Positions 2,075 through 28,135 are shown, counted from the first letter of the stretch. The stretch: DNA of 32,000 nt from an uncultured Clostridia bacterium (GCA_937886445.1 CALGBY010000022.1:15845-47844), one strand, 5' to 3'. Notes: generated by a model not told the origin, from the letters alone. Made by a program: numbers and translations.

Positions 2075-2080
2075 TAAGCG

Positions 2081-3427: not shown

Positions 3428-3557
3428 AGAGAATATCCAGTTTTGTGAGATGGTACAGTATCAGGGAATCAGTTCACATTATTCTTGAAAATCGTATGTC
3501 ATATTGGATTTTGATTCTTTGATTTTTACGAGAAAGCAAGTAATGGAGCAGTAATTT

Positions 3558-9643: not shown

Positions 9644-9646
9644 TTT

Positions 9647-10741
9647 ATGAATGAGAAAAATAGACCGAGAACAAGACAATCAAATTTGGAACTTTTACGA
9701 ATTATCGCCATGTGTATGGTTGTTGTAATGCATGCTCTCGGACACGGAGAGGCATTAGGAAAAACAAGTTTTGGAAGTATACAGTATATTTTACTATGGA
9801 TGATAAGTACACTTTGCCAAGTGGCAGTTCCTTGTTTTGTCTTGATAAGCGGATACTTTCTATGCAAGTCCGATTTCAAGCCTTCGAGGATAGTACGACT
9901 AGTAATACAAGTACTTTTTTATACCATAATTTTATTATTAGTAAGGATATTGTTTATTGATAAATCGGTTTCTACTACAGATATTCTCCATGCATTTTTT
10001 CCAATAACAAGTGGAGAATACTGGTTTATAACACAATATTGTCTTTTGTTATTAATATCACCGCTGCTGAATCGTATAATAAACACCATTTCGAAAAAGG
10101 AATATAAATTTTTGTTAATCGGATTAACTGTCACGTTTAGCATTATCCCAACTTTCCTATTTTGGGCAAAAGACAATTTTAGCGATGGTTATAATCTTCC
10201 ATGGTTTACTTTATTATATTTTCTGGCGGGGTATATAAGACTTTATGGTACAAAAATTCGTCATGGGATGAGTATATACTTCCTGTCTTCGGTTATATGT
10301 GTTGGCAGCCGACTTGTGATTGGATCAATCGCATATAGAATTACTGGATCATATACAGGAGCAGGATTGTTATATAATGGAAATTCGATACTCATATTGA
10401 TTTCTTCTATCTCACTATTTTCTGTTTTCTTGAAATTAAATATTCATCGAGAAAGAATTGCAGCTATGATTAATACCATAGGCTCTTGTGTAATTGGTGT
10501 GTATCTTCTTCACAATAATACAGCGATAAGAACGGAACTATGGAAATTGATAGATCCTGCTAAATATATTGATGGTAGTATTGTTGTGGAAATTCTGTGG
10601 GTTCTATTAGGATCACTAGTCATTTTTTGTGTAGGTGTATTTGTTGAGTGGCTGCGAAGTTTATTGATGAAAGTTCTAAAAGAACAACGTATGATGGAGA
10701 AGATAGATGAGAAAGGCGCAGTGTACTATGGAAAACATTGA
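9647..10741 (+). CDS. Acyltransferase family 3 membrane O-acyltransferase (second copy)
   Basis: 364 aa and polytopic. N-terminal SNLELLRIIAMCMVVVMH is the canonical acyltransferase_3 signature. Confidence 0.8.
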   Translation: MNEKNRPRTRQSNLELLRIIAMCMVVVMHALGHGEALGKTSFGSIQYILLWMISTLCQVAVPCFVLISGYFLCKSDFKPSRIVRLVIQVLFYTIILLLVRILFIDKSVSTTDILHAFFPITSGEYWFITQYCLLLLISPLLNRIINTISKKEYKFLLIGLTVTFSIIPTFLFWAKDNFSDGYNLPWFTLLYFLAGYIRLYGTKIRHGMSIYFLSSVICVGSRLVIGSIAYRITGSYTGAGLLYNGNSILILISSISLFSVFLKLNIHRERIAAMINTIGSCVIGVYLLHNNTAIRTELWKLIDPAKYIDGSIVVEILWVLLGSLVIFCVGVFVEWLRSLLMKVLKEQRMMEKIDEKGAVYYGKH

Positions 10742-11084
10742 TGTAGCAAACTTAATCACCATTTCCCATAATATCCATTTCCCAATCGAAACTATAAGAT
10801 GCAGGAAAATGGACAAGATATGTATCATGTATCAGACGGTATTCAATTGTTTGAAATGCAGTAAATAGAACGGGTCACTCAAAAAAATTTCTTGTTCATA
10901 TAGATGAGTTTATTTAATATTCATGGGTTGAATGGGTTGAGATGATTTGCCGTATTATGTACATAAATTTTCAGACAGTCTTCCCTGAGTTCCCAAGGCA
11001 TGCTTCTGAGGGTTTTATAGAGCCGTTTGGGTATGCAATCGAGCTGAAGATAATGCCTTCTTACTATTCTGTAAATTGAGTATT

Positions 11085-11112
11085 TTGATAATGTTCAGCG
11101 TTTTCTTAGAAT
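11085..11112 (+). promoter_or_regulatory. Putative sigmaA-type promoter for wzx and downstream genes
   Basis: TTGATA (11085-11090), a 16-nt spacer, then TAGAAT (11107-11112), at the 3' end of a 381-bp non-coding gap. It lies only ~10 nt before ATG 11123, so it would favour the GTG 11150 start. Confidence 0.3.
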
Positions 11113-11122
11113 AATTCGTCAA

Positions 11123-12577
11123 ATGCGTCAGAGGTGTAGAGTGGACAAGCGACTAGGAAAAAATATAATTCTCAATGTTGGGTATAACATTTTGTCTATA
11201 ATTGTCCCATTTATAACTGCTCCCTATTTGGGAAGAGTTTTGGGAACTGAGAATATTGGTGAATATACATATGTGTATTCTGTGGCCTCGTATTTTGTAA
11301 TGTTTGGCCTGTTAGGAATTAGTAATTATGGAACTAGGGAGATTGCTAGAGTTAGGGATAATCGAGTAAAACGCAGCAAAACTTTCTGGGAAGTATATTG
11401 TATGCAACTAATGACGGGCGTCATCGCATTACTTTGCTATTTTGTGTATGAAAGCATGATAAAGCATAACAATGGAATTGGTTGTTATATCATGGCGTTC
11501 TATGTTGCAACATCTGTGTTAGATTGTACCTGGTACTGTTCCGGCGTAGAAAAGTTTAAGAATATAGTTGGCAGAAACGTAATTATTAAGCTAAGTAACC
11601 TTGTGTGTGTTTTCGCCTTCATTCACCAGCCAGATGATTTGAATATTTATTTTTTCGTCATGGCTTTAAGTTATTTCTTTAGCGCACTTATCCTTTGGCC
11701 CACTATTTTGAAGGAAGTTGATCATTATAAACCGGATTGGAAATCGATAATAAGGCATTTTAAGCCCAATGTATATTTGTTTATTCCTGCAATTGCAGCA
11801 AGCATCTATCAAATAATGGATAAAGTTATGATCGGTGCAATTGCAAACAAGTCTCAATTAGCATACTATGAGTATGCGGATAAGATTCTTAATATACCCA
11901 ATATTGTGTTTGGTGCTATTGGTGCTGTAATGCTTTCAAGAATGACAAATGTATTGGAACATGGTCAGTCTGAATATAAGAGTTTGATTAGCTACTCAGT
12001 GGACTTATCAATGATTATTTCTGTTGGATTTACTTTCGGAGTATTCGCAATTAGTGATGAGTTGGTGGCTGTGTACTACGGCGCAGATTATATTGAATCG
12101 GGTTCGATACTAAAGGTTCTATGTCCAACAGTAATTTTCTATGGGTGGAACAATGTAATACGTATGCAATATATAATTCCGAACAACCTTAATTCAGTAT
12201 ATATTACATCAACTATTGCTGGAGCAATTGTCAATCTATTATTGAACTGGTTTTTCATCCCTCGATATTCTGCTCTTGGAGCAACAATCGGAACGATAGC
12301 TGCACAGGTTACCATTTTGTTGATTTATACGATGAAAATAAAAAAGTCGCTTCCATTTACAGAATATCTTCGGAAAAATGTGTTTTTGTTTGTTAATGGA
12401 TTAATAATGTGCACCGTTGTCATTCTGCTTCAACAGACACATCCTGCAACAGTAAAAGGATTAATTCTCGACGTTGTTGTTGGAATAGGGGTTTATTTTG
12501 CTTTATGTTTTACATACGGATTAACAAACAGGCAACATTTGATAAACCAAATTGTCAGATATCTAATTAGGAGGTAG
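11123..12577 (+). CDS. wzx: Wzx-type polysaccharide flippase (MOP superfamily)
   Basis: 484 aa with about 12-14 TM helices and N-terminal KNIILNVGYNILSIIVPFITAPYLGRVLGTENIG, typical of polysaccharide biosynthesis/Wzx proteins. The true start may be GTG at 11150. Confidence 0.85.
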   Translation: MRQRCRVDKRLGKNIILNVGYNILSIIVPFITAPYLGRVLGTENIGEYTYVYSVASYFVMFGLLGISNYGTREIARVRDNRVKRSKTFWEVYCMQLMTGVIALLCYFVYESMIKHNNGIGCYIMAFYVATSVLDCTWYCSGVEKFKNIVGRNVIIKLSNLVCVFAFIHQPDDLNIYFFVMALSYFFSALILWPTILKEVDHYKPDWKSIIRHFKPNVYLFIPAIAASIYQIMDKVMIGAIANKSQLAYYEYADKILNIPNIVFGAIGAVMLSRMTNVLEHGQSEYKSLISYSVDLSMIISVGFTFGVFAISDELVAVYYGADYIESGSILKVLCPTVIFYGWNNVIRMQYIIPNNLNSVYITSTIAGAIVNLLLNWFFIPRYSALGATIGTIAAQVTILLIYTMKIKKSLPFTEYLRKNVFLFVNGLIMCTVVILLQQTHPATVKGLILDVVVGIGVYFALCFTYGLTNRQHLINQIVRYLIRR

Positions 12578-12581
12578 TACG

Positions 12582-13406
12582 ATGAATTGTGCATTTCTGC
12601 TTTCCACCTGTGATTCATACGAGGATACGTGGGACCCCTTTTTCAGATTGGTTAGCAAATATTGGATATCTATTCCAATGAAGGTATATATCAATACTGA
12701 AACAAAGCAGTATGTTCCCACGGTGAAACTTCCTTTTGAGGTAATATCCTGCAATACTTCTTCTTCAATTCAATGGAGTAATCGTCTATTGCATGTTCTC
12801 GATATGATTCAGGAAGAGTATATATTCATGGTGCTTGACGATTTTTTTCTTCGAAGCCCTGTCAAAGATGAGTATTTTGACCAGTTATTAAGGATGATGG
12901 ATAATGATCAAAGTATTGCAAGCATTCAACTAAAAGCAGCTCGGTTAATACAAGAAGGGAAAAAAGAAGTAGTTAATAACTCGGAACTCGAAATATCTGA
13001 AATTGATAAAAATGGATGGAAGACTCATTTTGTTCCGACAATATGGAGAAAGTCTATATTGAAAAAGTGGCTTCGGAAGCATGAATCAATTTGGGGATTT
13101 GAACTATATGGCTCACAACGAGCACGTTTCTGGAATTATAAAGAAAAGGTACTTGCAGTTGATTCGCCAGTCATTTTTGATTATCTGTGGGTGGACGGAT
13201 GCTCGGTTATTGTTAATGGAAAATGGCTCGTAGCACCTGAGGTTGACACTTTTTTCCCCAATAACGGAATTGATATTGATCTAAGTTTACGCGGAAGAAT
13301 TACTCTTGAGGAGTACAGAAGTAGAACATTAAAAGATACAATCAAGAAGTTATCATTTGGAGAATTTGTTAAGAAATCAATTAATAGGGTGCGTTCAATA
13401 TTTTAA
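12582..13406 (+). CDS. Uncharacterised soluble protein, possible GT-A-like transferase
   Basis: AGGAGG RBS. 274 aa with no TM helix and a VLDDFF segment resembling a DXD motif. I cannot place the family from memory. Confidence 0.55.
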   Translation: MNCAFLLSTCDSYEDTWDPFFRLVSKYWISIPMKVYINTETKQYVPTVKLPFEVISCNTSSSIQWSNRLLHVLDMIQEEYIFMVLDDFFLRSPVKDEYFDQLLRMMDNDQSIASIQLKAARLIQEGKKEVVNNSELEISEIDKNGWKTHFVPTIWRKSILKKWLRKHESIWGFELYGSQRARFWNYKEKVLAVDSPVIFDYLWVDGCSVIVNGKWLVAPEVDTFFPNNGIDIDLSLRGRITLEEYRSRTLKDTIKKLSFGEFVKKSINRVRSIF

Positions 13407-13561
13407 AGTGTTAGGAGAGAATCGGAGATATGGAAAGTTATGAGATGGTACAGACTAGCTATATAGGAATCATAAAGTAGACTTGTGTGCGAACATGTAC
13501 ATTGCTGTCGCTGATGGATTATTGGGTCGAATATATTTTGGCTGGAAAATGGAGAATCAAA

Positions 13562-14008
13562 ATGAAAATCGTAGTTGCAGGTACCGGATATGTAGGACTA
13601 TCACTGGCGGTTCTTCTATCCCAACATAATGAGGTCATCGCAGTAGACATTGTTCCAGAAAAGGTTGATAAGATTAACAAGTAGCAAAGTCCAAACTCTT
13701 TGTGGAACGTTGAGAACGAGTGCTCGATTACCGTCGGTGTTTATCGCTTAACTATGAAGGCCAACTCCGATAACTTCCGTCAGAGCAGCATACAAGGCGT
13801 AATGAAGCGCATAAAGGCCAAAGGGGCAACTGTCATAATCTATGAGCCCACGCTTCCAACTGGCTCCACCTTCTTCGAATCTCTTGTCGTGAACAACATT
13901 GAGAGGTTCAAGAAGAGTTGTGATACGATTATTGTGAATCGGTATGATACCGTTCTCGATAATGTAGAAACCAAAGTTTATACAAGAGACCTGTTTAGGA
14001 GAGACTAA
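13562..14008 (+). pseudogene. ugd: UDP-glucose 6-dehydrogenase relic (internal in-frame deletion plus nonsense codon)
   Basis: The N-terminus [40 protein letters not shown] (GxGxxG Rossmann) ends at TAG 13682-13684. The same frame then continues ...QSP... directly into the extreme C-terminal domain ([30 protein letters not shown]...VYTRDLF). That leaves about 149 codons against about 390 for intact Ugd. Confidence 0.8.
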
Positions 14009-17005: not shown

Positions 17006-18198
17006 TGAATATTCTGGTAACCGGCGCGAAGGGCATGTGCGGAACTGCTCTGGTAAACAACCTGAAGAATATCCGTGATAACAAGAACCGCACCCGCCCG
17101 GGCATAAAGATAGATGAGATCTATGAGTATGATATCAATAATACGCCGGAGCAGCTGGACGCGTTTTGCAGCAAGGCGGATTTTGTGTTCAATCTGGCTG
17201 GCGTGAACCGCCCCACTGATCCTGAGGACTTTAAAAAAGGCAACTTCGGCTTTGCCTCCACGCTGCTTGATACCCTCAAAAAGCACGGCAGCAAGGCTCC
17301 GGTGATGCTGTCTTCATCCATTCAGGCTACGCTGATCGGCCGCTATGACAGCGATTACGGCAGAAGCAAGCTGGCCGGTGAGGAACTGTTTTTTGACTAT
17401 GCCAGAGAAACAGGTGTGAAGGTGGCGGTCTACCGCTTTCCCAACCTGATGGGCCATAGCCGCCCGAAATACAATTCTGCCGTATCCACCTTCTGCTGGG
17501 CTGTGGCAAATAATGAACCCTTTACCGTGAATGACCGGAATGCCATGGTGGAGCTGCTGTACATTGATGATCTGGTGGAGGGCATGTTTGATCTGCTGGA
17601 GGGCAGGGAACAGCACTGCGAGTATGATGGCCTGCAGCCTGTAATGAAGAGCGATGGCCACTACTGTATTGTGCCGGTTACGCATAAGGTAAGCCTGGGC
17701 GAGATCGTGGACCTGCTGGAGCAGTTCAAGCAGCAGCCGGTATCCCTCATGATGCCCCCAATGCCCGAAGGTAGCTTTGCCAAAAAGCTGTTCTCCCTGT
17801 ACCTTTCCTACCTGCCCGCGGAAGCGATCAAGTACACCATGAAGATGAATTGCGATGCCCGCGGAAGCTTTACCGAGCTGGTACATACCAAGGACTGCGG
17901 ACAGGTATCCATCAACATCAGCAAACCGGGCATCACTAAAGGCCAGCATTGGCATAACAGCAAGTGGGAGCAGTTCATTGTGGTGCATGGCCACGGCTTG
18001 ATACAGGAACGCAACATCAACACCAATGAAACGGTGGAGTTTGAGGTGTCCGGTGACAAGATAGAAGCCATTTACATGATCCCCGGCTGGACGCACAATA
18101 TCATCAACCTGAGCGATACAGAGGATCTGGTAACGGTGATGACCTGCAACGAGATTTTTGATCCCGCTCATCCCGATACCTTTGGGGAGCCGGTATGA
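17005..18198 (+). CDS. fnlB: Bifunctional SDR reductase/cupin protein (FnlB/CapF type)
   Basis: ATG 17005 overlaps the fnlC TGA by 1 nt, with GGAGGAAG RBS at 16992-16999. N-terminal SDR domain (ILVTGAKGMCG) and C-terminal cupin (DARGSFTEL...GITKGQHWHNSKWEQFIVVHG). The ORF-track start at 16990 (GTG) is less likely. Confidence 0.85.
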   Translation: MNILVTGAKGMCGTALVNNLKNIRDNKNRTRPGIKIDEIYEYDINNTPEQLDAFCSKADFVFNLAGVNRPTDPEDFKKGNFGFASTLLDTLKKHGSKAPVMLSSSIQATLIGRYDSDYGRSKLAGEELFFDYARETGVKVAVYRFPNLMGHSRPKYNSAVSTFCWAVANNEPFTVNDRNAMVELLYIDDLVEGMFDLLEGREQHCEYDGLQPVMKSDGHYCIVPVTHKVSLGEIVDLLEQFKQQPVSLMMPPMPEGSFAKKLFSLYLSYLPAEAIKYTMKMNCDARGSFTELVHTKDCGQVSINISKPGITKGQHWHNSKWEQFIVVHGHGLIQERNINTNETVEFEVSGDKIEAIYMIPGWTHNIINLSDTEDLVTVMTCNEIFDPAHPDTFGEPV

Positions 18199-18411
18199 TG
18201 AGCGCAAAACAGTGATCAATGTTCCGGAAAGCGTTTGTGGGGTTGCGGCATCCGTTCAGTAAAGCGCGCGGTGACGGAACTAAAGCATCTGCAGCGGCGC
18301 GAGGCAGAGAAACATGAGAAAACCGATCTCGCGATGCAGTATATAAGGAAAGACGTACATATATCAGGATTAGTGTGATTTCAACCAACAACAGAAAGTG
18401 AGGCGCAGTCA

Positions 18412-19446
18412 ATGAATATTTTGGTTACCGGTGGTGCAGGATATATCGGCTCTCATACAATAGTGGAACTGATAAGCGCCGGACACGCTGTTGTGGTGGT
18501 TGATAATCTTGCTAATTCTTCAAAAGAATCGATCAGCAGAGTGGAAAAGATCACCGGTGAGCACATCCCTTTTTATCAGGTGGATATACGTGATAGAAAT
18601 GGTCTGGAGGGTGTATTTGCCCGGCATCACTTTGACTGCTGTATCCATTTTGCGGGGTTGAAGGCGGTAGGCGAATCCGTTGTTACGCCGTGGGAATACT
18701 ATGAAAATAATATCAATGGAACGCTTGTGCTGCTTGATGTAATGAGAAAGCACGGGTGTAAAAACATCATTTTCAGTTCATCTGCTACGGTTTACGGTGA
18801 TCCTGTGCTGATACCCATAATGGAAGAATGCCCAAAGGGCAAATGTACAAATCCGTACGGCTGGACAAAGTGGATGATAGAGCAGATCCTCATGGATATG
18901 CACACAGCGGATATAAAGAAAATGGATGCCCATCCGTGGAACATTGTGCTGCTTCGCTACTTTAATCCCATTGGTGCTCATGCATCCGGGCTGATAGGCG
19001 AAGACCCGAATGGCATTCCGCAAAACATAATGCCGTATATCACGCAGGTGGCAGTGGGAAAGCTGGAAAAGCTGCATGTATTTGGAAATGATTATGATAC
19101 TCCTGATGGCACAGGCGTTCGTGACTATATTCACGTTGTAGATCTTGCCCGGGGGCATGTGGCAGCCCTGAAGGCGATAGAAGCAAACTGCGGTGTGGAG
19201 ATATTCAACCTGGGAACCGGAAAAGGATACAGCGTGCTTGAAGTGGTACACGCATTTGAAAAGGCGACCGGTATGAAAGTGCCATATGTGATAGATGCAA
19301 GACGCGCAGGAGATATCGGGACCTGCTACTCGGCACCCGGTAAGGCAATGCATTATCTGGGATGGAAAGCAGAGTATGGCATAGAGGATATGTGCCGGGA
19401 TAGCTGGAACTGGCAAAGGAATAACCCGAACGGGTATAGGAAATAA
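18412..19446 (+). CDS. galE: UDP-glucose 4-epimerase
   Basis: MNILVTGGAGYIGSHT, the YxxxK context (NPYGWTKWMIEQIL) and the RDYIHVVDLA motif. 344 aa. Confidence 0.9.
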   Translation: MNILVTGGAGYIGSHTIVELISAGHAVVVVDNLANSSKESISRVEKITGEHIPFYQVDIRDRNGLEGVFARHHFDCCIHFAGLKAVGESVVTPWEYYENNINGTLVLLDVMRKHGCKNIIFSSSATVYGDPVLIPIMEECPKGKCTNPYGWTKWMIEQILMDMHTADIKKMDAHPWNIVLLRYFNPIGAHASGLIGEDPNGIPQNIMPYITQVAVGKLEKLHVFGNDYDTPDGTGVRDYIHVVDLARGHVAALKAIEANCGVEIFNLGTGKGYSVLEVVHAFEKATGMKVPYVIDARRAGDIGTCYSAPGKAMHYLGWKAEYGIEDMCRDSWNWQRNNPNGYRK

Positions 19447-19456
19447 ACCAACTGTG

Positions 19457-19577
19457 TGATCCCCGGATGGATGCACAGTATCATTGACCTGAGCGATACG
19501 GAGGATCCGGTGACGGTGATGACCTGCAGAGAGATGATTGATCCTGGCTATCCGGATACCTTTGGAGAGCCGGTATG
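19457..19577 (+). pseudogene. fnlB: Diverged duplicate of the last ~40 codons of fnlB (relic)
   Basis: Hand alignment of 19457-19579 against 18077-18199 is gap-free with 18 mismatches in 123 nt (~85% identity). It translates IPGWMHSIIDLSDTEDPVTVMTCREMIDPGYPDTFGEPV*, compared with IPGWTHNIINLSDTEDLVTVMTCNEIFDPAHPDTFGEPV*. There is no upstream coding continuation. Confidence 0.85.
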
Positions 19578-19641
19578 ATCACAAAGGAAACAAAGTAATT
19601 TCTGTACTGATCTGCAAATGCTGCGGAGATTGGAGGAGCAT

Positions 19642-20043
19642 ATGATGCGGCCTGAAACGCAGGAAATGAAACTGCGCATATGGGAAGAACGGGTGATCGA
19701 TTGCCGCAGCAGCGGTAAAAGCGTGAGAAACTGGTGCAAGGAGCACAATATTGACTATTCCACCTATTTCAGATGGGAAAAGCAGGTACTGGAAACAAGC
19801 ATGTCCAAAGCCGGCAATAAGGTGGCGTTTTTGGAGCAGGCATTAAGCAAGAAACAGAATGAAGCTGCAAAGATACTGGATGACACTATTGGTTCACCAG
19901 AAGGTGCGGATGATAAAAAAGAACATATGGTGAGCTTCCGCGCGAATGATATGGTGTTTTCGGTGCCAGAAAACGTGCCTACAGCATTTTTGACAAGATT
20001 ACTGGAGGCTGCTTCACAGGCAGACAGGCACACGGCCAAATGA
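19642..20043 (+). CDS. IS66-family TnpA (Orf1)-like HTH accessory protein, orphan
   Basis: GGAGGAG RBS at 19632-19638. N-terminal pattern ...CRSSGKSVRNWCKEHNIDYSTYFRWEKQV (HTH) and C-terminal ...MVSFRANDMVFSVPENVPTAFLTRLLEA, both typical of IS66 Orf1. No tnpB or tnpC follows. The stop overlaps the VanZ start (ATGA). Confidence 0.65.
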   Translation: MMRPETQEMKLRIWEERVIDCRSSGKSVRNWCKEHNIDYSTYFRWEKQVLETSMSKAGNKVAFLEQALSKKQNEAAKILDDTIGSPEGADDKKEHMVSFRANDMVFSVPENVPTAFLTRLLEAASQADRHTAK

Positions 20044-20522
20044 GGAAATGCATTGCCTTTATATTGCTGATTTGCTGCGCGGTATGCATATTGCTGTTTT
20101 CTATGCAGAACGCGGAAAAATCGGGCATAACATCCGGCAATGTAAGCAGGATCATCGCGAGAGTGATCACCCGCGGCTTTGATGAGCTATCCGCGCCGGA
20201 GCAGCAGCGGAGAATAGATGAGATCAACCCGTATGTGCGAAAAATGGCGCATTTTTGCGAGTTTGCACTGTTTGGCGCGTTGGCGGTGCTTTGCTTTTTC
20301 AAGGCGGAGCGCAGAAAAAGATCGCTGATCATCTCGCTGTGCGCGGGGGCGTTGCTGGCGGTATGCGATGAAACGCTGCAAACGAGTGTACCCGGCAGAT
20401 ATGGCAGCCCGGTGGATATGCTGATAGATACAGCCGGGGTGACCGCCGGAGCAATGCTGATCTGGATAGCCCTGAACCGTTCAAGCAAAAAAGGATCTAC
20501 CCCCTGCAAAGAAAAAGATTGA
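20040..20522 (+). CDS. VanZ-like family membrane protein
   Basis: 160 aa with 4 TM helices. Motifs FSMQNAEKSG..S, RKMAHFCEFALFGAL and DETLQ..VPGR.GS..D.LID..G are typical of VanZ-like proteins. Confidence 0.8.
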   Translation: MRKCIAFILLICCAVCILLFSMQNAEKSGITSGNVSRIIARVITRGFDELSAPEQQRRIDEINPYVRKMAHFCEFALFGALAVLCFFKAERRKRSLIISLCAGALLAVCDETLQTSVPGRYGSPVDMLIDTAGVTAGAMLIWIALNRSSKKGSTPCKEKD

Positions 20523-20533
20523 GGTGCAGCATT

Positions 20534-23500
20534 ATGCCATCATATGTATGTGACATTTGCGGAAAAAAGTTTCTCGATTTATCAGGCAGCGGCGAGGTGG
20601 TATGCCCGCATTGCGGATACCTTGTGCAGGCTGTGCAAAAGGCCGCTGATGAAGAGAATCAGGCTGGAAAGATAGATATGGTGCTAAAGGGCACCCATAA
20701 GGATGAAGCCGATGCCGTGAGCAGCACCGGTAAGCTTGACCTGAAAAAGAATGACGCGGCCGGGCAAAAGGATGAGAAAGACGTGCAGGAAAGCGCACGT
20801 CTTGATTTGCATAAAAGCGTTGTAACTGAAGCGGATAATGCAGCGATAAATTCTGCCGCGGCGCTTATGAACGCCGGAAAGAAGAAGCTGGAAAACGAAT
20901 ACGAAGAGGAAGAAAAGGCCGAGCTGAAAAAGAAGAAAAGGCGTAAGAAGGTTGTTGTGGCTGCCTGCAGTGTGCTTGCGGCAGGCGCTGTTGCGGCGGC
21001 CGGGCTTGCGATAACGAATAAGAAACGCAACAGATCACCGCAGCAGACGCGCTACGCGCAGGCCATTGAAAACTGCGGAAACGGAAAATACGATGACGCC
21101 ATACAGGAACTGGAAGCGCTGGAAAACGAACAGTATGCCGATGCGGGCTATCAGCTGGAACGTGCCCGCTACCTGAAAGCGCTGGAAATGCTGAAGAGCG
21201 GCCGGTACAGCGAGGCAATAGAACTGCTGGATACGGTAAAAACCTATACCGATGTTACGGAAAAACGCAATAAAGCTGTGTATGGCAAGGCGCTTGAGAT
21301 GGCAGAGCAAGGCGACCGTAAGGGCGCGATCAGCCTGATGGACAGCCTTGGAGAATGGCAGGACGCCGCGGTGCAGAAGGAACGCATCACGCTGGAGGAA
21401 GCGGATGCCTGCATAGCAAGCGGCAGGTATGATGACGCGGCAGCCTTGCTTGACGCGCTGGTGGATAGAGAAATTGCCGCTGAACGGATGAACGCGCTTA
21501 CCTATGCCAGGGCGGACACGGCGCATGAGGAAGGGCGCTGTGCCGAAGCGGCGGAGCTGTACCGCGGCCTGGCCGACTACAGCGATGCTGAGCAGAAGCT
21601 GCACCGCTGCGCGGGAGATAAGCTGTATGCGGAGGGCAGCCTCGCGGAAGCCTACGGCGAATATATGGCAGCGGGTGAAGCGTATTTCACGCGCGCGAAG
21701 GATTACGCGCAGAAGTATACCGAGGCGTGGATGCTGCGTGATAACGAAAAATATATCGACGCGGCAGAGCAGTTTATACGGCTGGGTGCGTATGCGGATA
21801 GCCACAGCCAGGCGGAAGAATGCCGCATTCTTGCCGCGCGGGAGGCGATAGCCGCCTATGACGCGGATAAAGCATACAGCTATCTGGAAGGCATAGAAAG
21901 CGCGGAAGCGGTAAGCATCCGTACGCAGATAGAGAGCTATCGCCATGCCGGTGAATACGCGGAGAAAGGCGATATGCTGAACGCGGCAAATGAGTATACC
22001 GCGCTGAACGGCTTTTGCGACGCGGATGCGAGAGCGGATGAGTGCTATGCCGCTGTGTGCGCGGAGGCAGATAAGCTGCGCGATACAGGCGATATAGCCG
22101 GGGCATATGAGGTGTATTGCACTTTGCCTGAAGGCAAAGACGGAGGAAAGGCTGCCGCAACAGATGCCGCATACAGCAGGGCGGAACAGCTGTTTGCCGC
22201 GGGCGATTATGAAGGCGCGCGGCAGGAATATACCGCGCTTGGAAATTTCAAAAACTGCACAGAACAGCTGACCGCGTGCTGTTTGAACATTGCCGCGCGG
22301 TATGCTGAGGCAGGAGAATGGACAAAGGCGGAGGCGGAGTATGTGAAGGCATCCGCCTATACCGATGTATCCGCGTATATGGATGAGCTGCCGATGAACA
22401 AGGCCGAAAAGGTAAGAGCAGAGGGCAGATTGACTGAAGCGCTTGAATACTATCTGCAGGCTGAACGCACCAAAGAGAATAAAGAGAAAATATACACGCT
22501 TGCGCAGGAACTGGACGCGGCGGGAAACAGCGAAGCGGCGCTCAGGGCCTACAGCGCTGTAAAGGGCTACAGAAACAGCGATGACGCGATAAACGCCATA
22601 CTGTACGCGAATGCGGAAAAGCAGTATTCAAAGGGGCAGTATGACGAGGCAAAGGCAGGATACATTGCGCTGGCGGGCTATAAAGACAGCGCGGAACGGG
22701 CTGAAGACTGCGATGCAGCGAAGGCGGGCGAACTGATCGCACAGGGAGATATCGAGGCCGCGGAAGGCATACTGCTTGCGATGAGCGACCGGGAGAAGGC
22801 AGCAGAAATGCTGAATGAATGCGCGTACCTGAGAGCAGAGGCGCTGTTTGCCGAAGGCAGGCATGCGGAAGCAAAGCAAGCTTACGCAGCGCTTGGAAAT
22901 TATAAAAACAGCGCTGAAAGGATCAACGCCTGTGACAGAGCCCTGATGGGCGCGGAGTATGATGCTGCCCGGGAGCTTTTGACAAATGGCGATACAGAAG
23001 GCGCGAGACAGGCCTTTTCCGCTTTGCAGGGTAGGATGGATGTGAGCGCGGAGCTTACGGAATGCGACTATGCTGATGCTTCCGCGCTGCTTGCATCAGG
23101 GGATCTCGCAGGCGCGAAAGTGGCTTTTGAAGCACTGGGCGATTATAAGGACAGTGCGGAAAAAGCGGCTGAGTGCGGGCAGATCATGCTGAATGAGGAA
23201 TATGCCGCGGCAAAGGAATTGCTTGAAAACGGTGATATTGAAGCGGCAAGGAAGGCCTTTGGCGCCTTGCAGGGCAGGATGGTTGTGAGCCGGGAGCTTG
23301 CGGAATGCGACTATATGGATGCTTCCGCGTTGTTTGCATCAGGTGATCACGCGGGCGCGAAGGCGGCTTTTGAAGCATTGGGCGATTATAAGGACAGCAA
23401 GAGCATGGTGGATGCCTGTATTGAAGAAATGACGGGTGATCAGTACCGCAATGCAATGCGCCTGATGGAAAAGGAAAATTATTTTGACGCGGAGGTGCTG

Positions 23501-25138
23501 CTAAAGAGCATCAGCAATATAAGATGCGTGGACAGCGAAATAGCGCAGTGCAGATATCTGCGTGCTGAAAAGTATTTTGAAAAGGGTAAGTACAGCGATG
23601 CCGAAGCGCTGTACGCACAGATGGAAGGATATGAAAACAGCAGTGAGCGCCTGACAGAGTGCAGAATAAAAATGGCCGAAATGAAAGCGGATGACGCGCG
23701 GCAACTGATGGAAAAGGGCAATACTGAGGAGGCCAGACAGCTGCTTTGGAGCATTGCGGACAGGATAGATATAAGCGCAGATATGGCGGAATGCACCTAT
23801 ATCGACGCGAAAAAGTGCTTTGACGACGGGGATATCGATCGGGCGGAGGCACTTGCCGAAGAAAGCGGAAACGCGAATGCGCTGCTGCTGATAACAGAAT
23901 GCAGAAAAACACGCGCGCGGAGATTTGCTGAAGCGGGTGACGCAGAGGGTGAGCTGAACTGCTGGCTTTCGCTGTGCACATACACTGAGGCGGAAAATGC
24001 GCTGCTTGCACGCGCCGGTGAATATGAAAATGACGGGAACACCGGATATGCCGCGGCCTTGCTTGCCGGAATGAAGGGCAGCGAAAAGGCCGCGGAGACA
24101 CTGTATGCTATGGCGGAAAACGAGTACAGCAACGGTAACGCGGATATGGCGTTTGCTCTGCACAGCATCAACGCGGAATATGAGCCTTCACAGCAGCGAA
24201 TGCTGCAGCTTGTTGACAGTACAGACAGCGTATCTGTGTATAGTGCCGCAGAAAAAATCGGATCAGACGGCGACAGAGCGGCAAAGCTGTTTTCGGAATG
24301 CTATACGAAAGCAGCAGAACAGAGATTCAGCGATGCCATGCAGCTGATGGACAGTGGAAAATATGCTGAAGCGATAGCCATTTTGGAAAATGTGGAAGAT
24401 ATTGCGGAAGCAAAAGAGAAACTGAATGAATGCAAACTGATGCAAGCCAGACAGCTGCTGAGCGATGAAAAATATCTGCAGGCATATAAACTGCTGAAGG
24501 AACTGGGAGATTTCGGAGACGCTTATGAAATGATCTGCCGGGACGACAGGCTGCTCTATCTTGATAACCGCGTGCTGAAGGCTGATTTACTGAGGAACGT
24601 AGGGGATACGGTGCTGTTTGGTAGATATGTGTATGACGGCATTGATGAGAATGACGCGGAGCCTGTGCAGTGGATTGTGATGAGCAACGACGGGGAAAAG
24701 GCGGTACTGATAGCGAAACAGACGGTCGAAATGCTTCCGTTTGACGAGAAAGGACGTAACGACTGGGAGAGAAGTACGATTCGGGAATGGCTGAATGGCG
24801 AATTTATCCGCAGCACATTCAATGATGATGAGCAGTTGCTTCTGCTGGCTGATGATAATGAGGACTTTGTATCGATACCTGCAAGAATCGAAGCAATAAG
24901 CTGGCTTGAAGGAAATGGAATGATGGCATGCGTTCCTTCCGGGCATGTGATGATGCAGTATGAGCCTTTCGGTTATGTTGAAGGCATCAGTAACTGGTGG
25001 CTGAAAGACGCGGGCTATACGGATAAACGTGTTGTGACTGTGAACGCGCAGGGAAGGATCTATGAATACGGCAATGCCGCAGACGCGGAGTGGGTTGCTG
25101 TGAGACCTGTGATATGTGTGAAGGTCACACAGAAATAA
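20534..25138 (+). CDS. Giant membrane protein: N-terminal zinc ribbon, single TM, about 30 TPR-like repeats, C-terminal DUF6273-like domain
   Basis: ATG 20534 lies 7 nt after GAGGTG; the ORF-track TTG at 20519 is less likely. CDIC...CPHC forms a zinc ribbon. A KKKKRRKK stretch precedes the TM helix VVVAACSVLAAGAVAAAGLAI. Degenerate 32-41-aa repeats then follow with the form (G/N)G(D/N)x(E/D)xAxxxFxxLG(D/N)YK(D/N)Sxxxxx(E/A)C. The C-terminus, GDTVLFGRY...PVQWIVM......WERSTIREWLN..F....F......WWLKD......VRPVICV, matches the DUF6273 pattern. Confidence 0.85.
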   Translation: MPSYVCDICGKKFLDLSGSGEVVCPHCGYLVQAVQKAADEENQAGKIDMVLKGTHKDEADAVSSTGKLDLKKNDAAGQKDEKDVQESARLDLHKSVVTEADNAAINSAAALMNAGKKKLENEYEEEEKAELKKKKRRKKVVVAACSVLAAGAVAAAGLAITNKKRNRSPQQTRYAQAIENCGNGKYDDAIQELEALENEQYADAGYQLERARYLKALEMLKSGRYSEAIELLDTVKTYTDVTEKRNKAVYGKALEMAEQGDRKGAISLMDSLGEWQDAAVQKERITLEEADACIASGRYDDAAALLDALVDREIAAERMNALTYARADTAHEEGRCAEAAELYRGLADYSDAEQKLHRCAGDKLYAEGSLAEAYGEYMAAGEAYFTRAKDYAQKYTEAWMLRDNEKYIDAAEQFIRLGAYADSHSQAEECRILAAREAIAAYDADKAYSYLEGIESAEAVSIRTQIESYRHAGEYAEKGDMLNAANEYTALNGFCDADARADECYAAVCAEADKLRDTGDIAGAYEVYCTLPEGKDGGKAAATDAAYSRAEQLFAAGDYEGARQEYTALGNFKNCTEQLTACCLNIAARYAEAGEWTKAEAEYVKASAYTDVSAYMDELPMNKAEKVRAEGRLTEALEYYLQAERTKENKEKIYTLAQELDAAGNSEAALRAYSAVKGYRNSDDAINAILYANAEKQYSKGQYDEAKAGYIALAGYKDSAERAEDCDAAKAGELIAQGDIEAAEGILLAMSDREKAAEMLNECAYLRAEALFAEGRHAEAKQAYAALGNYKNSAERINACDRALMGAEYDAARELLTNGDTEGARQAFSALQGRMDVSAELTECDYADASALLASGDLAGAKVAFEALGDYKDSAEKAAECGQIMLNEEYAAAKELLENGDIEAARKAFGALQGRMVVSRELAECDYMDASALFASGDHAGAKAAFEALGDYKDSKSMVDACIEEMTGDQYRNAMRLMEKENYFDAEVLLKSISNIRCVDSEIAQCRYLRAEKYFEKGKYSDAEALYAQMEGYENSSERLTECRIKMAEMKADDARQLMEKGNTEEARQLLWSIADRIDISADMAECTYIDAKKCFDDGDIDRAEALAEESGNANALLLITECRKTRARRFAEAGDAEGELNCWLSLCTYTEAENALLARAGEYENDGNTGYAAALLAGMKGSEKAAETLYAMAENEYSNGNADMAFALHSINAEYEPSQQRMLQLVDSTDSVSVYSAAEKIGSDGDRAAKLFSECYTKAAEQRFSDAMQLMDSGKYAEAIAILENVEDIAEAKEKLNECKLMQARQLLSDEKYLQAYKLLKELGDFGDAYEMICRDDRLLYLDNRVLKADLLRNVGDTVLFGRYVYDGIDENDAEPVQWIVMSNDGEKAVLIAKQTVEMLPFDEKGRNDWERSTIREWLNGEFIRSTFNDDEQLLLLADDNEDFVSIPARIEAISWLEGNGMMACVPSGHVMMQYEPFGYVEGISNWWLKDAGYTDKRVVTVNAQGRIYEYGNAADAEWVAVRPVICVKVTQK
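22931..23416 (+). repeat. Tandem duplication, 2 x 243 bp (2 x 81 codons), inside the giant gene
   Basis: Cys codons at 22931, 23174 and 23417 mark exact 243-bp periodicity. The units are 53/80 identical at protein level (about 80% in the central 67 residues) and are clearly more similar to each other than to neighbouring repeats. Confidence 0.85.
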
Positions 25139-25157
25139 TGATTTGGAGGGAGAATGT

Positions 25158-25484
25158 ATGACTGGAAAAGTGTGCGCTAAATGCGGAAGAAAGTATCTGT
25201 CATTTGACGATAATGACGGGAGCATATGTGAAGCATGTACAGCCAAAGCTGCTATGGCAGATTCCGGTACCGAATCCGAAAAAGAAGGACAGCAGAATGC
25301 GCAGTCACATAATGTGGAAACGCATTTTATCAAGTTTGAAGACGCATACGCGAGTGAAATGCGCGAAGACAGAAAACGGGAAAGAAAGATGAAAAGGGCA
25401 CAGATCTTTTTCGTGATCATTGTAATTGTGATAATAGCATTGATTGTTATGTTGGAACGGTCTCTCACAGGTACTGTGGAGTAA
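25158..25484 (+). CDS. Small zinc-ribbon, C-terminally membrane-anchored protein
   Basis: GGAGGGAG RBS before ATG 25158. CAKCG...CEAC forms a zinc ribbon. An acidic/polar linker and a basic stretch RKRERKMKR precede the TM helix IFFVIIVIVIIALIVML. It has the same topology as the N-terminus of the upstream giant protein. Confidence 0.6.
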   Translation: MTGKVCAKCGRKYLSFDDNDGSICEACTAKAAMADSGTESEKEGQQNAQSHNVETHFIKFEDAYASEMREDRKRERKMKRAQIFFVIIVIVIIALIVMLERSLTGTVE

Positions 25485-25500
25485 ACGCAGGAGGTTTGTC

Positions 25501-26625
25501 ATGCTTAAAAGGCATATGCGCTTTTTTGATGTATGCTGTGTATGCATATTGATTTTCAGCCTGACCGGAGTACAGGCGGAATCGGATAAATATGCGGATC
25601 CACAAAGGAAGATCGTGCTCTCTTTTATTGGCGACTGCAATTATGGCGACGTGTATTACAGAATGGATGAAAGCGATTCACTGAAGAATGTGATATCCGA
25701 GCACGGTGATGAATGGCTGTTTTCCGGGGTGAAAGATATTTTTCTTGATGATGACGCAACATTTATGAATCTGGAAGCAATATGGACGGACAGAACATAT
25801 CAAATGGCGTCAAAAAACAACAATATTATTGGCAGCAAAACCTATGTAAATCAATTGATCAAAAACGGTATTGACGCTGTAAATACGGCAACAAATCATT
25901 GTATGGACTTTGGTCAGATCGGGTATGATGATATGATGGATGTACTGGATCAGGCCGGAATCACTCACTTTGGCACAATAACAGGAAAAACAGATATACT
26001 TGCCGTGTACGAAACAAAGGGTATCAGGATAGGCGCGCTGGGCTACTCTTTGCCGCAGGATTACGATATACCCAAAATTCGCGGGAGAATCAGGCAGCTG
26101 AGAGAAATGGGATGTGACCTTGTGATCGTGAGTCTGCATTGGGGTACCCAGGCAAAAAACGGTGATATGAAAGCTACAGCCCTTGAAAGCTGGCAAACCG
26201 GGTATGCAAAAGAAGTGATCGATGCCGGCGCAGATGTGATATGGGGACACCATCCCGGTGTGCTGCAGCCGATCATGATCTATAAAGGAAAACCTGTGTT
26301 TTTCAGCACCGGAACTTTTGTTTCCGGCATCATGACAGATGTGATCCGCTATACAGGGGTATTTCAGCTACAATATGTGACGGATGAAAATGGCGCGCCT
26401 GTGCTGGAATCGCTGCAGGTGATCCCGTGTATAACAGGTGAACGGGGAGACTATCGGGTGTCTGTGCTGGAGGACGAAGCGGAAAGAGAAAACTGCTTAA
26501 GCATGTTGATAGGGAAAAAAGATATTGCCGAAATGCAAAACCTTCCTGATGAGTTTATTACAGACGGTAACTTTTTGTTCAATTTTATGTCCAATAACGA
26601 AGAAAACATAATAACCGAAGACTGA
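25501..26625 (+). CDS. CapA/PGA_cap family (metallophosphatase-fold) exported protein
   Basis: AGGAGG RBS before ATG 25501. Signal peptide MLKRHMRFFDVCCVCILIFSLTGVQA. Motifs SFIGDCNY, NLE, ATNHCMDFG, VSLHWGT and WGHHPGVLQP are typical of CapA. Confidence 0.85.
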   Translation: MLKRHMRFFDVCCVCILIFSLTGVQAESDKYADPQRKIVLSFIGDCNYGDVYYRMDESDSLKNVISEHGDEWLFSGVKDIFLDDDATFMNLEAIWTDRTYQMASKNNNIIGSKTYVNQLIKNGIDAVNTATNHCMDFGQIGYDDMMDVLDQAGITHFGTITGKTDILAVYETKGIRIGALGYSLPQDYDIPKIRGRIRQLREMGCDLVIVSLHWGTQAKNGDMKATALESWQTGYAKEVIDAGADVIWGHHPGVLQPIMIYKGKPVFFSTGTFVSGIMTDVIRYTGVFQLQYVTDENGAPVLESLQVIPCITGERGDYRVSVLEDEAERENCLSMLIGKKDIAEMQNLPDEFITDGNFLFNFMSNNEENIITED

Positions 26626-26665
26626 CTGCATAAAAGCGGTGGTATGTGTTTTTGATATGAGAAAC

Positions 26666-26702
26666 GGGGCGGCTGCAGGATTTATGTTCCTGCAGCCGCC
26701 CC
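26666..26702. terminator. Bidirectional rho-independent terminator between convergent genes
   Basis: 14-bp GC-rich stem ggggcggctgcagg (26666-26679) / cctgcagccgcccc (26689-26702). It is flanked by an A-rich run upstream and ttattttt downstream. Confidence 0.7.
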
Positions 26703-26707
26703 GCGGC

Positions 26708-27811
26708 TTATTTTTCGGCCGGAGCCTGCTTCGCGATGGAGGAATTTTTGTAGGCGGGGTCTTCGGAAATGTCCTCAAGCATCGTGATGAAGGGGGGAAT
26801 GACAACGGTATCATCCTTACCGGTCAGCTCCTGCTTCAGGATGGCCTGCTTTTTCCAGAAGGGATAGATATCCACCTCGTAATAGTGGCCGTCCCAGGTG
26901 AAGCAGTAGCGTGTTTTGCGCAGCTGGTGGTAGGTGGTATCAGCCTCCATCAGCAGCCTCAGGTATTCAAATTCGCTCAGGCGCTGTTCCAGCTCGATAC
27001 GCTTTCCGTCGGCTCCGGGGCGCTTGGTGTTTTTGAAATAAATGTAGCTGCCGTTCAGGCCGCGCTGGCGCACGCGGATCTTTTCATCGGGGCCGGAGCG
27101 CAGATAGGTCTGTATGATCTCCACCTTGCGGCAGGAGGGATCGTTTTCCAGCTTTTCCGCATCAGGCATGGAAATGAGGAATTTTTTGAAGGTGTCGTAG
27201 GGCAGAGGCTCGCCGAGGAAAGCGGAGATCTCGCTGATGAGCCGGTGCATTTTCTGATCAAAATCCGTCTCGTTGCCGATGACGCGCAGATGGGGATGCC
27301 CCGTCCAGGCGGCGATCAGCCTGTTATCCAGCTCCACAGCCTGCTCCGGCGTTTCTGTGCGCGCCACATTGTTGGCAAGCGTATAAAAGGCTTCCTTGCC
27401 CTTCGCGGCGGTTTCCAGGAAGAAAACGGCGTCATAGCTGTCGCGCAGCTCCGTTTCATCGCGGTGCACCGTGCGCAGCACCTGGGCAAACTCGCTGTCC
27501 GTCATATAGGCGCGGTTATCGATCGCGCCGCGGTCGCACACGATGAGCAGCTTTTCATCGCTCATGTGCCGGGCACCCTGCTCAAATATGCGCTCCTTTT
27601 CCAGCTGCAGCTTCATCTGGCACTTCTGGTAGTCCACATTGTGGATCACCGTCCACGGCGCGAGGCCGCCGCCGATCAGTTCGCTGGCGGTCTCGGGCAC
27701 AAAAAGCACCTTATAGCCCTTTGCGGTGAAGGCGTTCTGGATCCAGCTGAGCGCTGTGGTTTTGCCCGCGCAGGGGCCGCCTGTGATCACGATTTTGGTA
27801 ATTCTGCCCAT
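26708..27811 (-). CDS. AAA_28 (NadR-like P-loop ATPase) - CYTH domain fusion protein
   Basis: Start set at ATG 27811 (MGRITKIVITGGPCAGKTT, Walker A) with GGAGGA RBS. The C-terminal half shows CYTH features: FKKFLI, IIQTYL, IRVRQRG, RIELEQ, RKTRY, YEVDIY, DISEDPAYKNSSIA. The ORF-track N-terminal extension to 27967 starts at GTG without an RBS. Confidence 0.8.
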   Translation of the reverse strand: MGRITKIVITGGPCAGKTTALSWIQNAFTAKGYKVLFVPETASELIGGGLAPWTVIHNVDYQKCQMKLQLEKERIFEQGARHMSDEKLLIVCDRGAIDNRAYMTDSEFAQVLRTVHRDETELRDSYDAVFFLETAAKGKEAFYTLANNVARTETPEQAVELDNRLIAAWTGHPHLRVIGNETDFDQKMHRLISEISAFLGEPLPYDTFKKFLISMPDAEKLENDPSCRKVEIIQTYLRSGPDEKIRVRQRGLNGSYIYFKNTKRPGADGKRIELEQRLSEFEYLRLLMEADTTYHQLRKTRYCFTWDGHYYEVDIYPFWKKQAILKQELTGKDDTVVIPPFITMLEDISEDPAYKNSSIAKQAPAEK

Positions 27812-28135
27812 ACTGTCCTCCGGCTCAGAAACGGCGGCTGTTCCAGCATTCGTTGATGCTGCTGCCGTCCCGGTATGTGTTTTTTTCTTCGTCCGCGGAA
27901 GGTCTGCTTTCCGCTTCTTCCTTTTGCCTGCGCAGCCTTGCCTGCTTTTCAAATGCGGAAGGCACACGGCGCGGTCTTTCGGCCGTGCTGTTCTTATCTG
28001 CCATGCGATTTCCTTCCCTTGCTGTTTTACGGTCTATTATAGCCCCTTTTGCATGCGCATTTCAAGCCCTTTGCGCTTTTTTTGCAGGGCAGCTCCGCAA
28101 GAAGATATGCCGCGCAGAAAGAACGGCTGTCACGG

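Follow-up and report, generated by a model that had tools for sequence, protein, structure and literature searches.

A giant membrane protein with a predicted TPR-like stalk and DUF6273 head in a species-specific five-gene block of an uncultured Clostridia bacterium

DUF6273 is a protein domain described as C-type-lectin-like (PMC10743442, PMC12237041). It occurs in the immunoglobulin A (IgA) peptidase of Thomasclavelia ramosa (IgAse/ThomasA, structure 9qa6), whose N-terminal domain consists of a C-type-lectin-like core with large decorations (PMC12237041), and in phage proteins (tentaclins and the targets found in Faecalibacterium prophages), where it has been proposed to form ligand-binding heads on extended supports (PMC10743442, PMC11792537). 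In Faecalibacterium phages, the domain carries the variable region of the targets of diversity-generating retroelements (DGRs) (PMC11792537). Here we analyze a block of five plus-strand genes (19642-26625) in a 32,000-nucleotide stretch of DNA from an uncultured Clostridia bacterium (GCA_937886445.1, CALGBY010000022.1:15845-47844; hereafter the window, with positions counted from its first letter). The block is centered on a gene for a 1534-aa membrane protein, here called the giant protein, that ends in a DUF6273 domain.

The giant protein resembles these described systems in its head and differs from them in how that head is carried. The IgA peptidase has a domain of the same Pfam family, is the solved structure that the head of the giant protein matches, and is extracellular, in a Gram-positive gut bacterium. 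Its DUF6273 domain, however, lies N-terminal to a metallopeptidase in a sortase-anchored protein and is ~12% identical in sequence to the head of the giant protein, which is C-terminal on a membrane-anchored stalk resembling tetratricopeptide repeats (TPRs). The phage proteins share the domain family and the fold. They differ in that their supports are Ig-like or tail-fibre domains rather than TPR-like repeats, and in that they are diversified by retroelements, with the variable region at the C-terminus of the domain, whereas the giant protein is conserved between strains.

The remaining parts of the block also have described counterparts. Its CapA-like product shares the PGA_cap family and a calcineurin-like fold with CapA/PgsA of poly-gamma-glutamate synthesis, from which it differs in that its signal peptide is cleavable where the latter has a membrane anchor, and with MslH, a characterized PGA_cap enzyme that acts as a lasso-peptide epimerase (PMC10406935). 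Its VanZ-like product falls with the VanZ-2 family of the lipocone superfamily, which is predicted to act on lipid-carrier-linked head groups of envelope precursors (PMC12419801). Finally, relatives of the giant protein share the layout of PASTA Ser/Thr kinases and of BlaR1/MecR1, in that a DUF6273 ectodomain, with or without TPR-like repeats, is joined to a Pkinase or Peptidase_M56 domain. The giant protein itself differs from those receptors in that its cytoplasmic part consists of nothing more than a zinc ribbon and a disordered linker, and its ectodomain belongs to another family that has not been characterized as a sensor. The original prediction for this block, made from the DNA alone, held that none of its modules had an established function except by analogy. 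That statement needs updating for DUF6273, which has a solved structure and has been described as lectin-like and, in phage, as a receptor-binding domain diversified by DGRs (PMC10743442, PMC11792537, PMC12237041), and it is outdated for PGA_cap, given the enzyme MslH (PMC10406935), and for VanZ, given its biochemical prediction (PMC12419801).

We tentatively read the block as a lineage-specific operon in which a long-stalked, lectin-like surface binder or receptor would be co-expressed with an enzyme acting on an envelope polymer. The block is a species-specific arrangement of known, uncharacterized parts and not a conserved machine.

Topology, stalk and head of the giant protein

The gene for the giant protein (20534-25138, plus strand) opens with a cytoplasmic part (20534-20944) composed of a zinc ribbon at residues 1-27, with CxxC pairs at residues 6-9 and 24-27, a low-complexity linker of acidic and basic residues, and the stretch KKKKRRKK at residues 130-137. 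A single transmembrane helix follows (20945-21013, residues ~138-160, located by hydropathy scan), and the zinc ribbon, poly-Lys/Arg stretch and lone membrane helix of the original prediction are thus all present. Matches of the cytoplasmic part to FYDLN_acid, Zn_ribbon and SCO2400 models in Pfam and NCBIfam are weak, all of them below cutoff. Because the basic stretch sits N-terminal of the membrane helix, the sequence implies an N-in/C-out type II membrane protein in which the repeat array and the DUF6273 head would be extracytoplasmic. This agrees with two homologues (P0003 and P0004) that begin with lipoprotein signal peptides.

Most of the ectodomain is a predicted TPR-like alpha-solenoid array (21077-24535, residues ~182-1334), delimited by a repeat hidden Markov model (HMM) and an AlphaFold (AF2) model. 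Seeded on ten regular units, the repeat HMM recovers 23 units, of which 16 reach E < 1e-3; unit lengths of 37 and 44 aa alternate. An array of repeats with a conserved cysteine had been predicted and is borne out, at 23 units rather than the roughly 30 first counted; the strict motif G[DN]YK[DN]S given for it does occur, in only a few units, and the consensus is better written as C-x-Y..A..L...G....A...F..LG.YKDS. Tandem Repeats Finder reports no DNA-level repeat, which suggests that the protein repeats are old and have diverged.

The AF2 model of residues 691-1129 (predicted local distance difference test score, pLDDT, 92.4) is all helical, with long and short helices in alternation. Searched with this stalk model, Foldseek places TPR superhelices at the top with probability 1.0, at TM-scores of 0.13-0.22 (~0.15) and with large root-mean-square deviations. 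TPR-related sequence models all fall short of their cutoffs (TPR_16, 20.3 against 32.7 bits; YbgF, 68 against 90; BamD, 50 against 81), and the units of 37 and 44 aa compare with 34 aa in TPRs. As modeled, the array resembles TPRs but differs from them in overall curvature and geometry. Going by the usual geometry of TPRs, we estimate that the stalk would be some tens of nanometers long, enough to span the cell wall and an exopolysaccharide (EPS) layer.

Each unit has one conserved cysteine, which is placed ~7 residues after the start of the long helix and not in a loop. Since these cysteines are inside helices, one to a repeat, regular disulfides between them look unlikely in the model. The per-repeat cysteines of residues 726-1087 are also kept in distant homologues, within the consensus DSxxxxxECxY.

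The head (24614-25135) is assigned to DUF6273 along several routes, in keeping with the original prediction of a Trp-rich C-terminal domain of this kind. Its match to PF19789 scores 38.0 bits against a gathering cutoff of 23.5 and is partial, covering profile positions 23-58 only, whereas an HMM that we built from homologues extends over residues 1361-1534 (E 1e-45). When residues 1290-1534 are modeled (pLDDT 85.5), the last helices of the stalk are followed by a mixed alpha/beta domain, with a predicted C-type-lectin-like fold. With this model as query, the only significant solved structure found by Foldseek is the T. ramosa IgA peptidase (9qa6, E 6e-5, probability 1.0). Against BFVD, it finds 19 predicted phage proteins at E < 1e-3 (best E 3e-9), a good number of which bear the name DUF6273. 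Searching the PDB by sequence with this domain returned nothing meaningful, and the structural match comes by fold search only.

We also considered the giant protein as a DGR target. A sensitive blastn search of the window for a further copy of 24701-25138 found none, and no reverse-transcriptase family was present among the window open reading frames (ORFs) scanned. The candidate was rejected for lack of a template repeat in the window.

A word-index homology search with the full giant protein gave 5 distant homologues only (21-26% identity), a further homology search with the C-terminal 334 aa gave 6 matches, and neither a genome-contig scan with the giant protein as single query nor an exact look-up of its contig gave any. 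By exhaustive HMMER search, residues 335-1534 match 13,414 clusters (50% identity) at E <= 1e-3, 3,705 at E <= 1e-10 and 240 at E <= 1e-30, so that the idea of an orphan protein was rejected. The best 149 relatives are repeat and/or DUF6273 proteins of 430-3183 aa. Their N-termini are varied, with signal or lipoprotein peptides in ~63, zinc ribbons in 19, and a longer cytoplasmic region ahead of an internal transmembrane helix in 52. Two relatives (P0191 and P0258) have exactly the layout found in the window, namely a zinc ribbon, a charged linker, a transmembrane helix and GYKDS repeats.

Some relatives carry recognizable effector domains on the cytoplasmic side. Pfam identifies Ser/Thr kinase domains in P0177 and P0221 and TIR_2 in P0155 and P0270, all in cytoplasmic regions; TIR_2 is also annotated in P0002, P0005 and P0006. 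Metagenomic loci encode proteins that combine a BlaR1-type Peptidase_M56 domain with DUF6273, as well as tandem arrays of zinc-ribbon-kinase-DUF6273 genes. One to four copies of DUF6273 are joined in this manner, through one transmembrane helix, to kinase, TIR_2 or M56 domains in L094 (1702-11831), L098 (1-10636) and L108 (8261-10609) and in P0177, P0221, P0155 and P0270. Proteins of this layout point to an unrecognized receptor family in gut Firmicutes. The couplings to kinase, TIR and M56 domains mark the ectodomain as a ligand-binding module, and there is precedent for lectin-like domains as the ligand-binding part of signalling proteins in cyanobacterial DGR targets (PMC7517822). The repeat/DUF6273 ectodomain thus behaves as a portable extracellular binding module, of which the giant protein is an output-less version. 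One further locus (L001, 2677-16588) holds four consecutive TIR_2 genes, two of them with DUF6273, beside Band_7-like genes; this cluster of paralogues might be a defence locus.

The CapA-like protein and its DUF6273-bearing relatives

The last gene of the block (25501-26625, plus strand) encodes a 374-aa protein with an N-terminal signal peptide and a strong PGA_cap match (PF09587, 158 bits against a cutoff of 27, E 3e-46), confirming the predicted exported CapA-like protein of metallophosphatase fold. It matches the MslH structures 8gq9 and 8ith (E 1e-11). Residues D45, E92, N132, H133, D136, H213 and H250 are invariant in the homologue alignment and match residues of MslH (8gq9), in which the equivalents are Asp11, Glu44, Asn87, His88, Asp91, His259 and His295. 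Identity to MslH is nevertheless low and partial, and there is no lasso-peptide cluster at the window locus. Synthesis of a poly-gamma-glutamate capsule (PgsBCA/CapBCA) was rejected as a role, because neither the PgsB (Mur-ligase-like) nor the PgsC family is among the window ORFs scanned with Pfam.

The closest homologues of the CapA-like protein outside the species join the same two domain families that occur in the block. About 26 of the 119 homologues listed outside the species are fusions of 610-650 aa, 42-49% identical to it, in which a single secreted protein comprises a signal peptide, DUF6273, a Pro/Thr linker and PGA_cap. We examined 80 related CapA loci (L007-L086) from Christensenellales-like, 'Limiplasma' and uncultured Clostridia genomes and found the two domains fused in 24. 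A gene for a NAGPA phosphodiester glycosidase lies directly downstream in 23 of these 24 fused loci, with a gene for an Lgt-like polytopic protein next in line. The Lgt-like gene is present in 23 loci, one contig stopping short of its position, and the one locus that has no NAGPA gene directly downstream has both genes ~5 kb upstream.

In one locus (L010, 7762-11918) the arrangement is split, with a GYKD-repeat and DUF6273 gene, whose 5′ end is lost in a run of N, directly upstream of a gene for a 374-aa CapA, followed by the NAGPA and Lgt-like genes. Together with the fusions, this locus makes it unlikely that the adjacency of DUF6273 and CapA in the window is pure chance, and the sequence comparisons support a functional association of the two families. 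The window nonetheless differs from the fusions in that two genes, separated by a small one, encode the two domains, in lacking NAGPA and Lgt-like genes, and in the subtype of its DUF6273 domain. Because of this difference in subtype, the adjacency of the giant and CapA-like genes is not a simple gene split, and the splitting of a fusion was rejected as its origin. As a separate observation, the operon of fusion, NAGPA and Lgt-like genes is conserved in Christensenellales-like genomes (for example at 5146-9085 of L007), often downstream of a gene for an RluA-type pseudouridine synthase.

The five-gene block and its competing explanations

Ahead of the giant gene lie a gene for a 133-aa helix-turn-helix (HTH) protein (19642-20043) and a VanZ-family gene for a 160-aa membrane protein (20040-20522), and between the giant and CapA-like genes lies a gene for a 108-aa protein (25158-25484), all on the plus strand. 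The coordinates of all five are identical to public gene calls, and the same five products are already on public record, so the gene calls are not idiosyncratic. The stop codon of the first gene overlaps the VanZ start (ATGA at 20040-20043), and the VanZ stop (TGA, 20520-22), overlapped by a GAGGTG, is followed after an 11-nt gap by the ATG of the giant gene at 20534. The two remaining gaps are 19 nt (giant to small gene) and 16 nt (small to CapA-like gene), and GGAGG-type ribosome-binding sites precede the last three starts (GGAGGG and AGGAGG, respectively, ahead of the genes with the 19- and 16-nt gaps).

Downstream of the block, a stem-loop terminator (26665-26703), common to the block and a convergent gene, forms a hairpin (-42.6 kcal/mol, z = -7.0) whose 16-bp stem includes 13 GC pairs; a short T-run comes after it. 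Promoter-like and terminator-like matches inside the block are at chance level, and an Rfam scan of the window gave no match. Both the tight same-strand packing, with its ATGA overlap and its gaps of 11, 19 and 16 nt, and the strong terminator between convergent genes had been described in the original prediction, and both hold. With gaps of at most 19 nt, the ATGA overlap and no internal terminator, co-transcription is likely, and the five genes probably form one transcription unit. The product of the convergent minus-strand gene (26708-27967) is an ATPase of the AAA_28 family, extended at length at its C-terminus, and the gene is unrelated to the block; it is kept in a second strain with zero non-synonymous changes.

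In that second strain, which comes from another sample, two contigs carry the block, one with the HTH, VanZ and giant genes and the other with the small, CapA-like and AAA_28 genes; their nucleotide identities to the window are 96.8% and 98.9%. Every reading frame is intact there and has the same length. Between the strains, 29 of 1202 residues of the giant protein differ, with no indels, and the ratio of non-synonymous to synonymous substitution rates (dN/dS) is 0.125 for the HTH gene, 0.29 for VanZ, 0.137 for the giant gene and 0.19 for the CapA-like gene. Within the species, the block is kept in order under purifying selection.

The first gene was correctly predicted to encode an HTH protein, and it can be named more specifically. 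Its product matches the IS66 TnpA equivalog model of NCBIfam (NF047593, 41.6 bits against a cutoff of 28) and HTH_Tnp_1 of Pfam (25.4 against 24.1 bits). The genes tnpB and tnpC, the latter encoding a DDE transposase, do not follow downstream, where VanZ and then the giant gene come next. By these matches it is an orphan IS66 TnpA-like gene and not a generic HTH gene; it is intact and under purifying selection (its dN/dS being measured against contig L005 of the second strain) and has no conserved partner.

The VanZ assignment, also predicted, scores well above cutoff (PF04892, 72.8 bits against a cutoff of 30.1, E 5e-20; NF037970, 68 bits). The translation contains RKMAH and DMLID, which fit the motifs RKxxH and DxxxD that define VanZ-2 in an analysis of the lipocone superfamily (PMC12419801). 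The same analysis reports VanZ genes beside peptidoglycan and exopolysaccharide genes, as well as fusions of VanZ-1 to HTH domains (PMC12419801). A VanZ gene is thus expected in a neighbourhood of EPS genes, as here, and needs no link to the giant protein. Beyond the Pfam family, the motifs and the neighbourhood, which it shares with the predicted VanZ-2 family, the window gene differs in being translationally coupled to an IS66 TnpA-like gene, a context that has not been described; its role is likewise a predicted one.

The 108-aa protein has the layout originally described, with a zinc ribbon, a basic stretch, a transmembrane helix at residues 77-100 and almost no ectodomain (~8 external residues). 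Its ribbon shares 9 of 27 residues with the N-terminus of the giant protein (33% identity over 27 aa). In public collections it belongs to a cluster of 2, and it is specific to the lineage or species.

Across species the block does not hold together. We examined six homologue contexts, made up of those of four distant repeat-protein homologues (three with DUF6273) and of two further DUF6273 homologues, and neither VanZ nor the small zinc-ribbon gene was seen in them (two of the six being covered through precomputed Pfam annotations only). In 52 metagenomic DUF6273 loci, VanZ appears once, 0.5 kb upstream of a DUF6273 gene (L108), and is not kept in the relative L118; as a conserved partner of DUF6273 it was rejected. 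Around CapA, the small zinc-ribbon/transmembrane gene is present in 0 of the 80 loci, as is a homologue of the HTH gene (one opposite-strand HTH_Tnp_1 ORF lies in L109), and VanZ is found in 2 of 80, 5-6 kb away and on the other strand. Co-occurrence of the giant, small zinc-ribbon and CapA-like genes across genomes was the test set in advance for the original prediction; these genes do not recur as a unit, and only the pairing of DUF6273 with PGA_cap does. By these comparisons, the five-gene block is not a conserved unit across species.

On the reading that we tentatively prefer, in which a surface binder or receptor and an enzyme for an envelope polymer are expressed together, the block would have come together in this lineage out of cell-envelope genes of four kinds. 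The zinc ribbon and charged linker of the giant protein would stay in the cytoplasm, with the single helix crossing the membrane and ~1,150 residues of TPR-like alpha-solenoid forming a stalk with the lectin-like DUF6273 domain at its tip. The stalk could carry this tip out through the wall and through the EPS layer made by the neighbouring locus, where it may bind a glycan or peptide ligand. The CapA-like protein, with its calcineurin-like metallo-enzyme fold, would be exported by its signal peptide and might act on the same surface polymer that the DUF6273 tip recognizes, with the binding module carried in this case by the giant protein and not by the enzyme. A shared substrate is suggested because relatives of the CapA-like protein carry a DUF6273 domain of their own and adjoin a phosphodiester glycosidase gene. 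The VanZ-2 protein would act on lipid-carrier-linked envelope precursors (PMC12419801), and the TnpA-like and small zinc-ribbon proteins would be species-specific additions.

Several observations weigh against this account. Precomputed Pfam annotations show no CapA-like gene in the six homologue contexts, PGA_cap occurs in 0 of the 52 metagenomic DUF6273 loci (402 kb), and the NAGPA and Lgt-like partners of the fusions are absent from the window. The DUF6273 domain of the giant protein is nearer to the free-standing type (19-34% identity) than to the CapA-fused type (14-21%). The CapA-like protein of the window is itself unusual: in the tree it forms a divergent long branch outside both the fused and the solo clades, and of the 77 positions with at least 95% conservation among the 80 relatives it departs from 14, the next most deviant protein departing from 7. 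S47N, P73L, N131T, E217Q and H253G replace residues that are invariant in 80 of 80, and N272T one that is conserved in 79. From these replacements, its activity may be altered or weakened, or its specificity changed. In the IgA protease, moreover, cleavage does not require the DUF6273 domain (PMC12237041).

The main rival, which we regard as doubtful, is that the block is a chance array of co-directional neighbours with separate jobs, in which VanZ and the HTH protein serve EPS or peptidoglycan synthesis, the giant protein is an independent adhesin or receptor, the CapA-like protein an independent enzyme and the small protein an unrelated peptide. The failure of all but the DUF6273-PGA_cap pair to co-occur across genomes fits this explanation, as do the subtype of the giant protein's head, the reported occurrence of VanZ families beside EPS and peptidoglycan genes (PMC12419801) and the recombination scars at the junction with the EPS locus. 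It sits poorly, however, with the close packing of genes that no internal terminator separates and with the order maintained in the second strain, and the fusions and the split locus L010 speak against chance where DUF6273 and CapA are concerned. A decaying remnant of a mobile element, in which the HTH, small and CapA-like genes are becoming pseudogenes, could likewise draw on the nearby scars, on the orphan state of the TnpA-like gene and on the long branch of a CapA-like protein that has lost residues conserved in its subfamily. It is the least probable of the explanations considered, since frames and lengths are the same in the second strain, the equivalents of the catalytic and metal residues of MslH are retained, and dN/dS is low for the HTH, CapA-like and giant genes alike; on this last ground pseudogenisation was rejected.

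The original prediction itself proposed a transmembrane scaffold or signalling device. In its fuller form, the ectodomain would sense a polymer or other ligand, and the ribbons of the giant and small proteins would pair and control the HTH protein or the envelope enzymes. At the level of the family this is reasonable, given the relatives that join such an ectodomain through one transmembrane helix to a Ser/Thr kinase, TIR_2 or BlaR1-type M56 domain, the zinc ribbon that commonly caps the N-terminus in many receptors of this sort (19 of the 149 top relatives), a small protein that mimics the cytoplasmic module of the giant protein, and the precedent for lectin-like sensor domains (PMC7517822). 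For the block itself it is unlikely: Pfam and NCBIfam recognize no output domain in the giant protein, the small protein is conserved nowhere else, the two ribbons share just 9 residues, and the HTH protein is IS66 TnpA-like and not a known response regulator. A more ambitious version, in which the giant protein is an effector-less member of an unrecognized class of single-pass receptors in Firmicutes (stalked DUF6273 heads coupled to kinase, TIR or BlaR1-type outputs), signals or is regulated through the small protein, and senses a polymer that the co-transcribed CapA-family enzyme remodels, so that the block would be a split module for sensing and remodeling that spans the capsule, we consider decidedly unlikely. 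The relatives with TIR domains also raise an anti-phage role, with the lectin-like head as a surface sensor or decoy that detects or traps phage, in parallel to TIR-bearing relatives acting as abortive-infection receptors. TIR_2-bearing paralogues do exist, including the tandem cluster in L001, and DUF6273 is frequent in the tail and receptor-binding proteins of phages. Still, such a role is very improbable here: the giant protein has no TIR or other effector domain, it is not diversifying (its 29 differences in 1202 residues going with a low dN/dS), and neither a DGR template repeat in the window nor a reverse-transcriptase family in the ORFs scanned accompanies it. PADLOC, run on six proteins, returned two marginal matches only, to unrelated models (E 0.002 and 0.004), and a known defence system was rejected for want of a meaningful match.

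If the giant protein is indeed a surface binder or receptor, the locus would be a simple, effector-free example of a very large, unstudied family of surface proteins in gut Firmicutes. Two points were absent from the literature we searched on DUF6273, its role as a receptor ectodomain and its role as a targeting module of CapA enzymes. Both are testable, the one in kinase, TIR and BlaR1-type proteins and the other in secreted CapA-family enzymes encoded beside NAGPA and Lgt-like genes, and either could help to assign a substrate to 'CapA family' proteins that are unrelated to poly-gamma-glutamate. The gain for the window itself is modest because the five-gene arrangement is species-specific, and the interest is mostly at the level of the families.

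The neighbouring exopolysaccharide locus

The original prediction placed the block directly beside an EPS locus, and a Pfam scan of the window ORFs identifies the upstream 19 kb as a Wzx/Wzy-type gene set. Its products include Wzz-like and tyrosine-kinase-like proteins, a priming transferase, glycosyl- and acyl-transferases, Wzy and a flippase, together with FnlA/CapE-like, 2-epimerase, CapF-like and GalE proteins.

The junction between this locus and the block carries marks of recombination. A duplicated 3′ remnant of the CapF-like gene (19457-19579, plus strand, 123 nt) is 85% identical to 18077-18199. In contig L005 of the second strain, the CapF-like gene stops at the position of the duplicate, and galE (18412-19446 in the window) is absent. 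The duplicate and the absence of galE suggest that recombination at this site has swapped the EPS cassette.

Two further features lie within the EPS locus itself. Its center (2000-14000) has a GC content of 34-43%, compared with 50-58% in the flanks, as is typical of a horizontally exchanged, serotype-specific cassette. Two short ORFs (13487-13684 and 13700-14008) resemble, as judged by eye, the N- and C-terminal parts of a UDP-glucose 6-dehydrogenase, and the pair is probably an internally deleted pseudogene.

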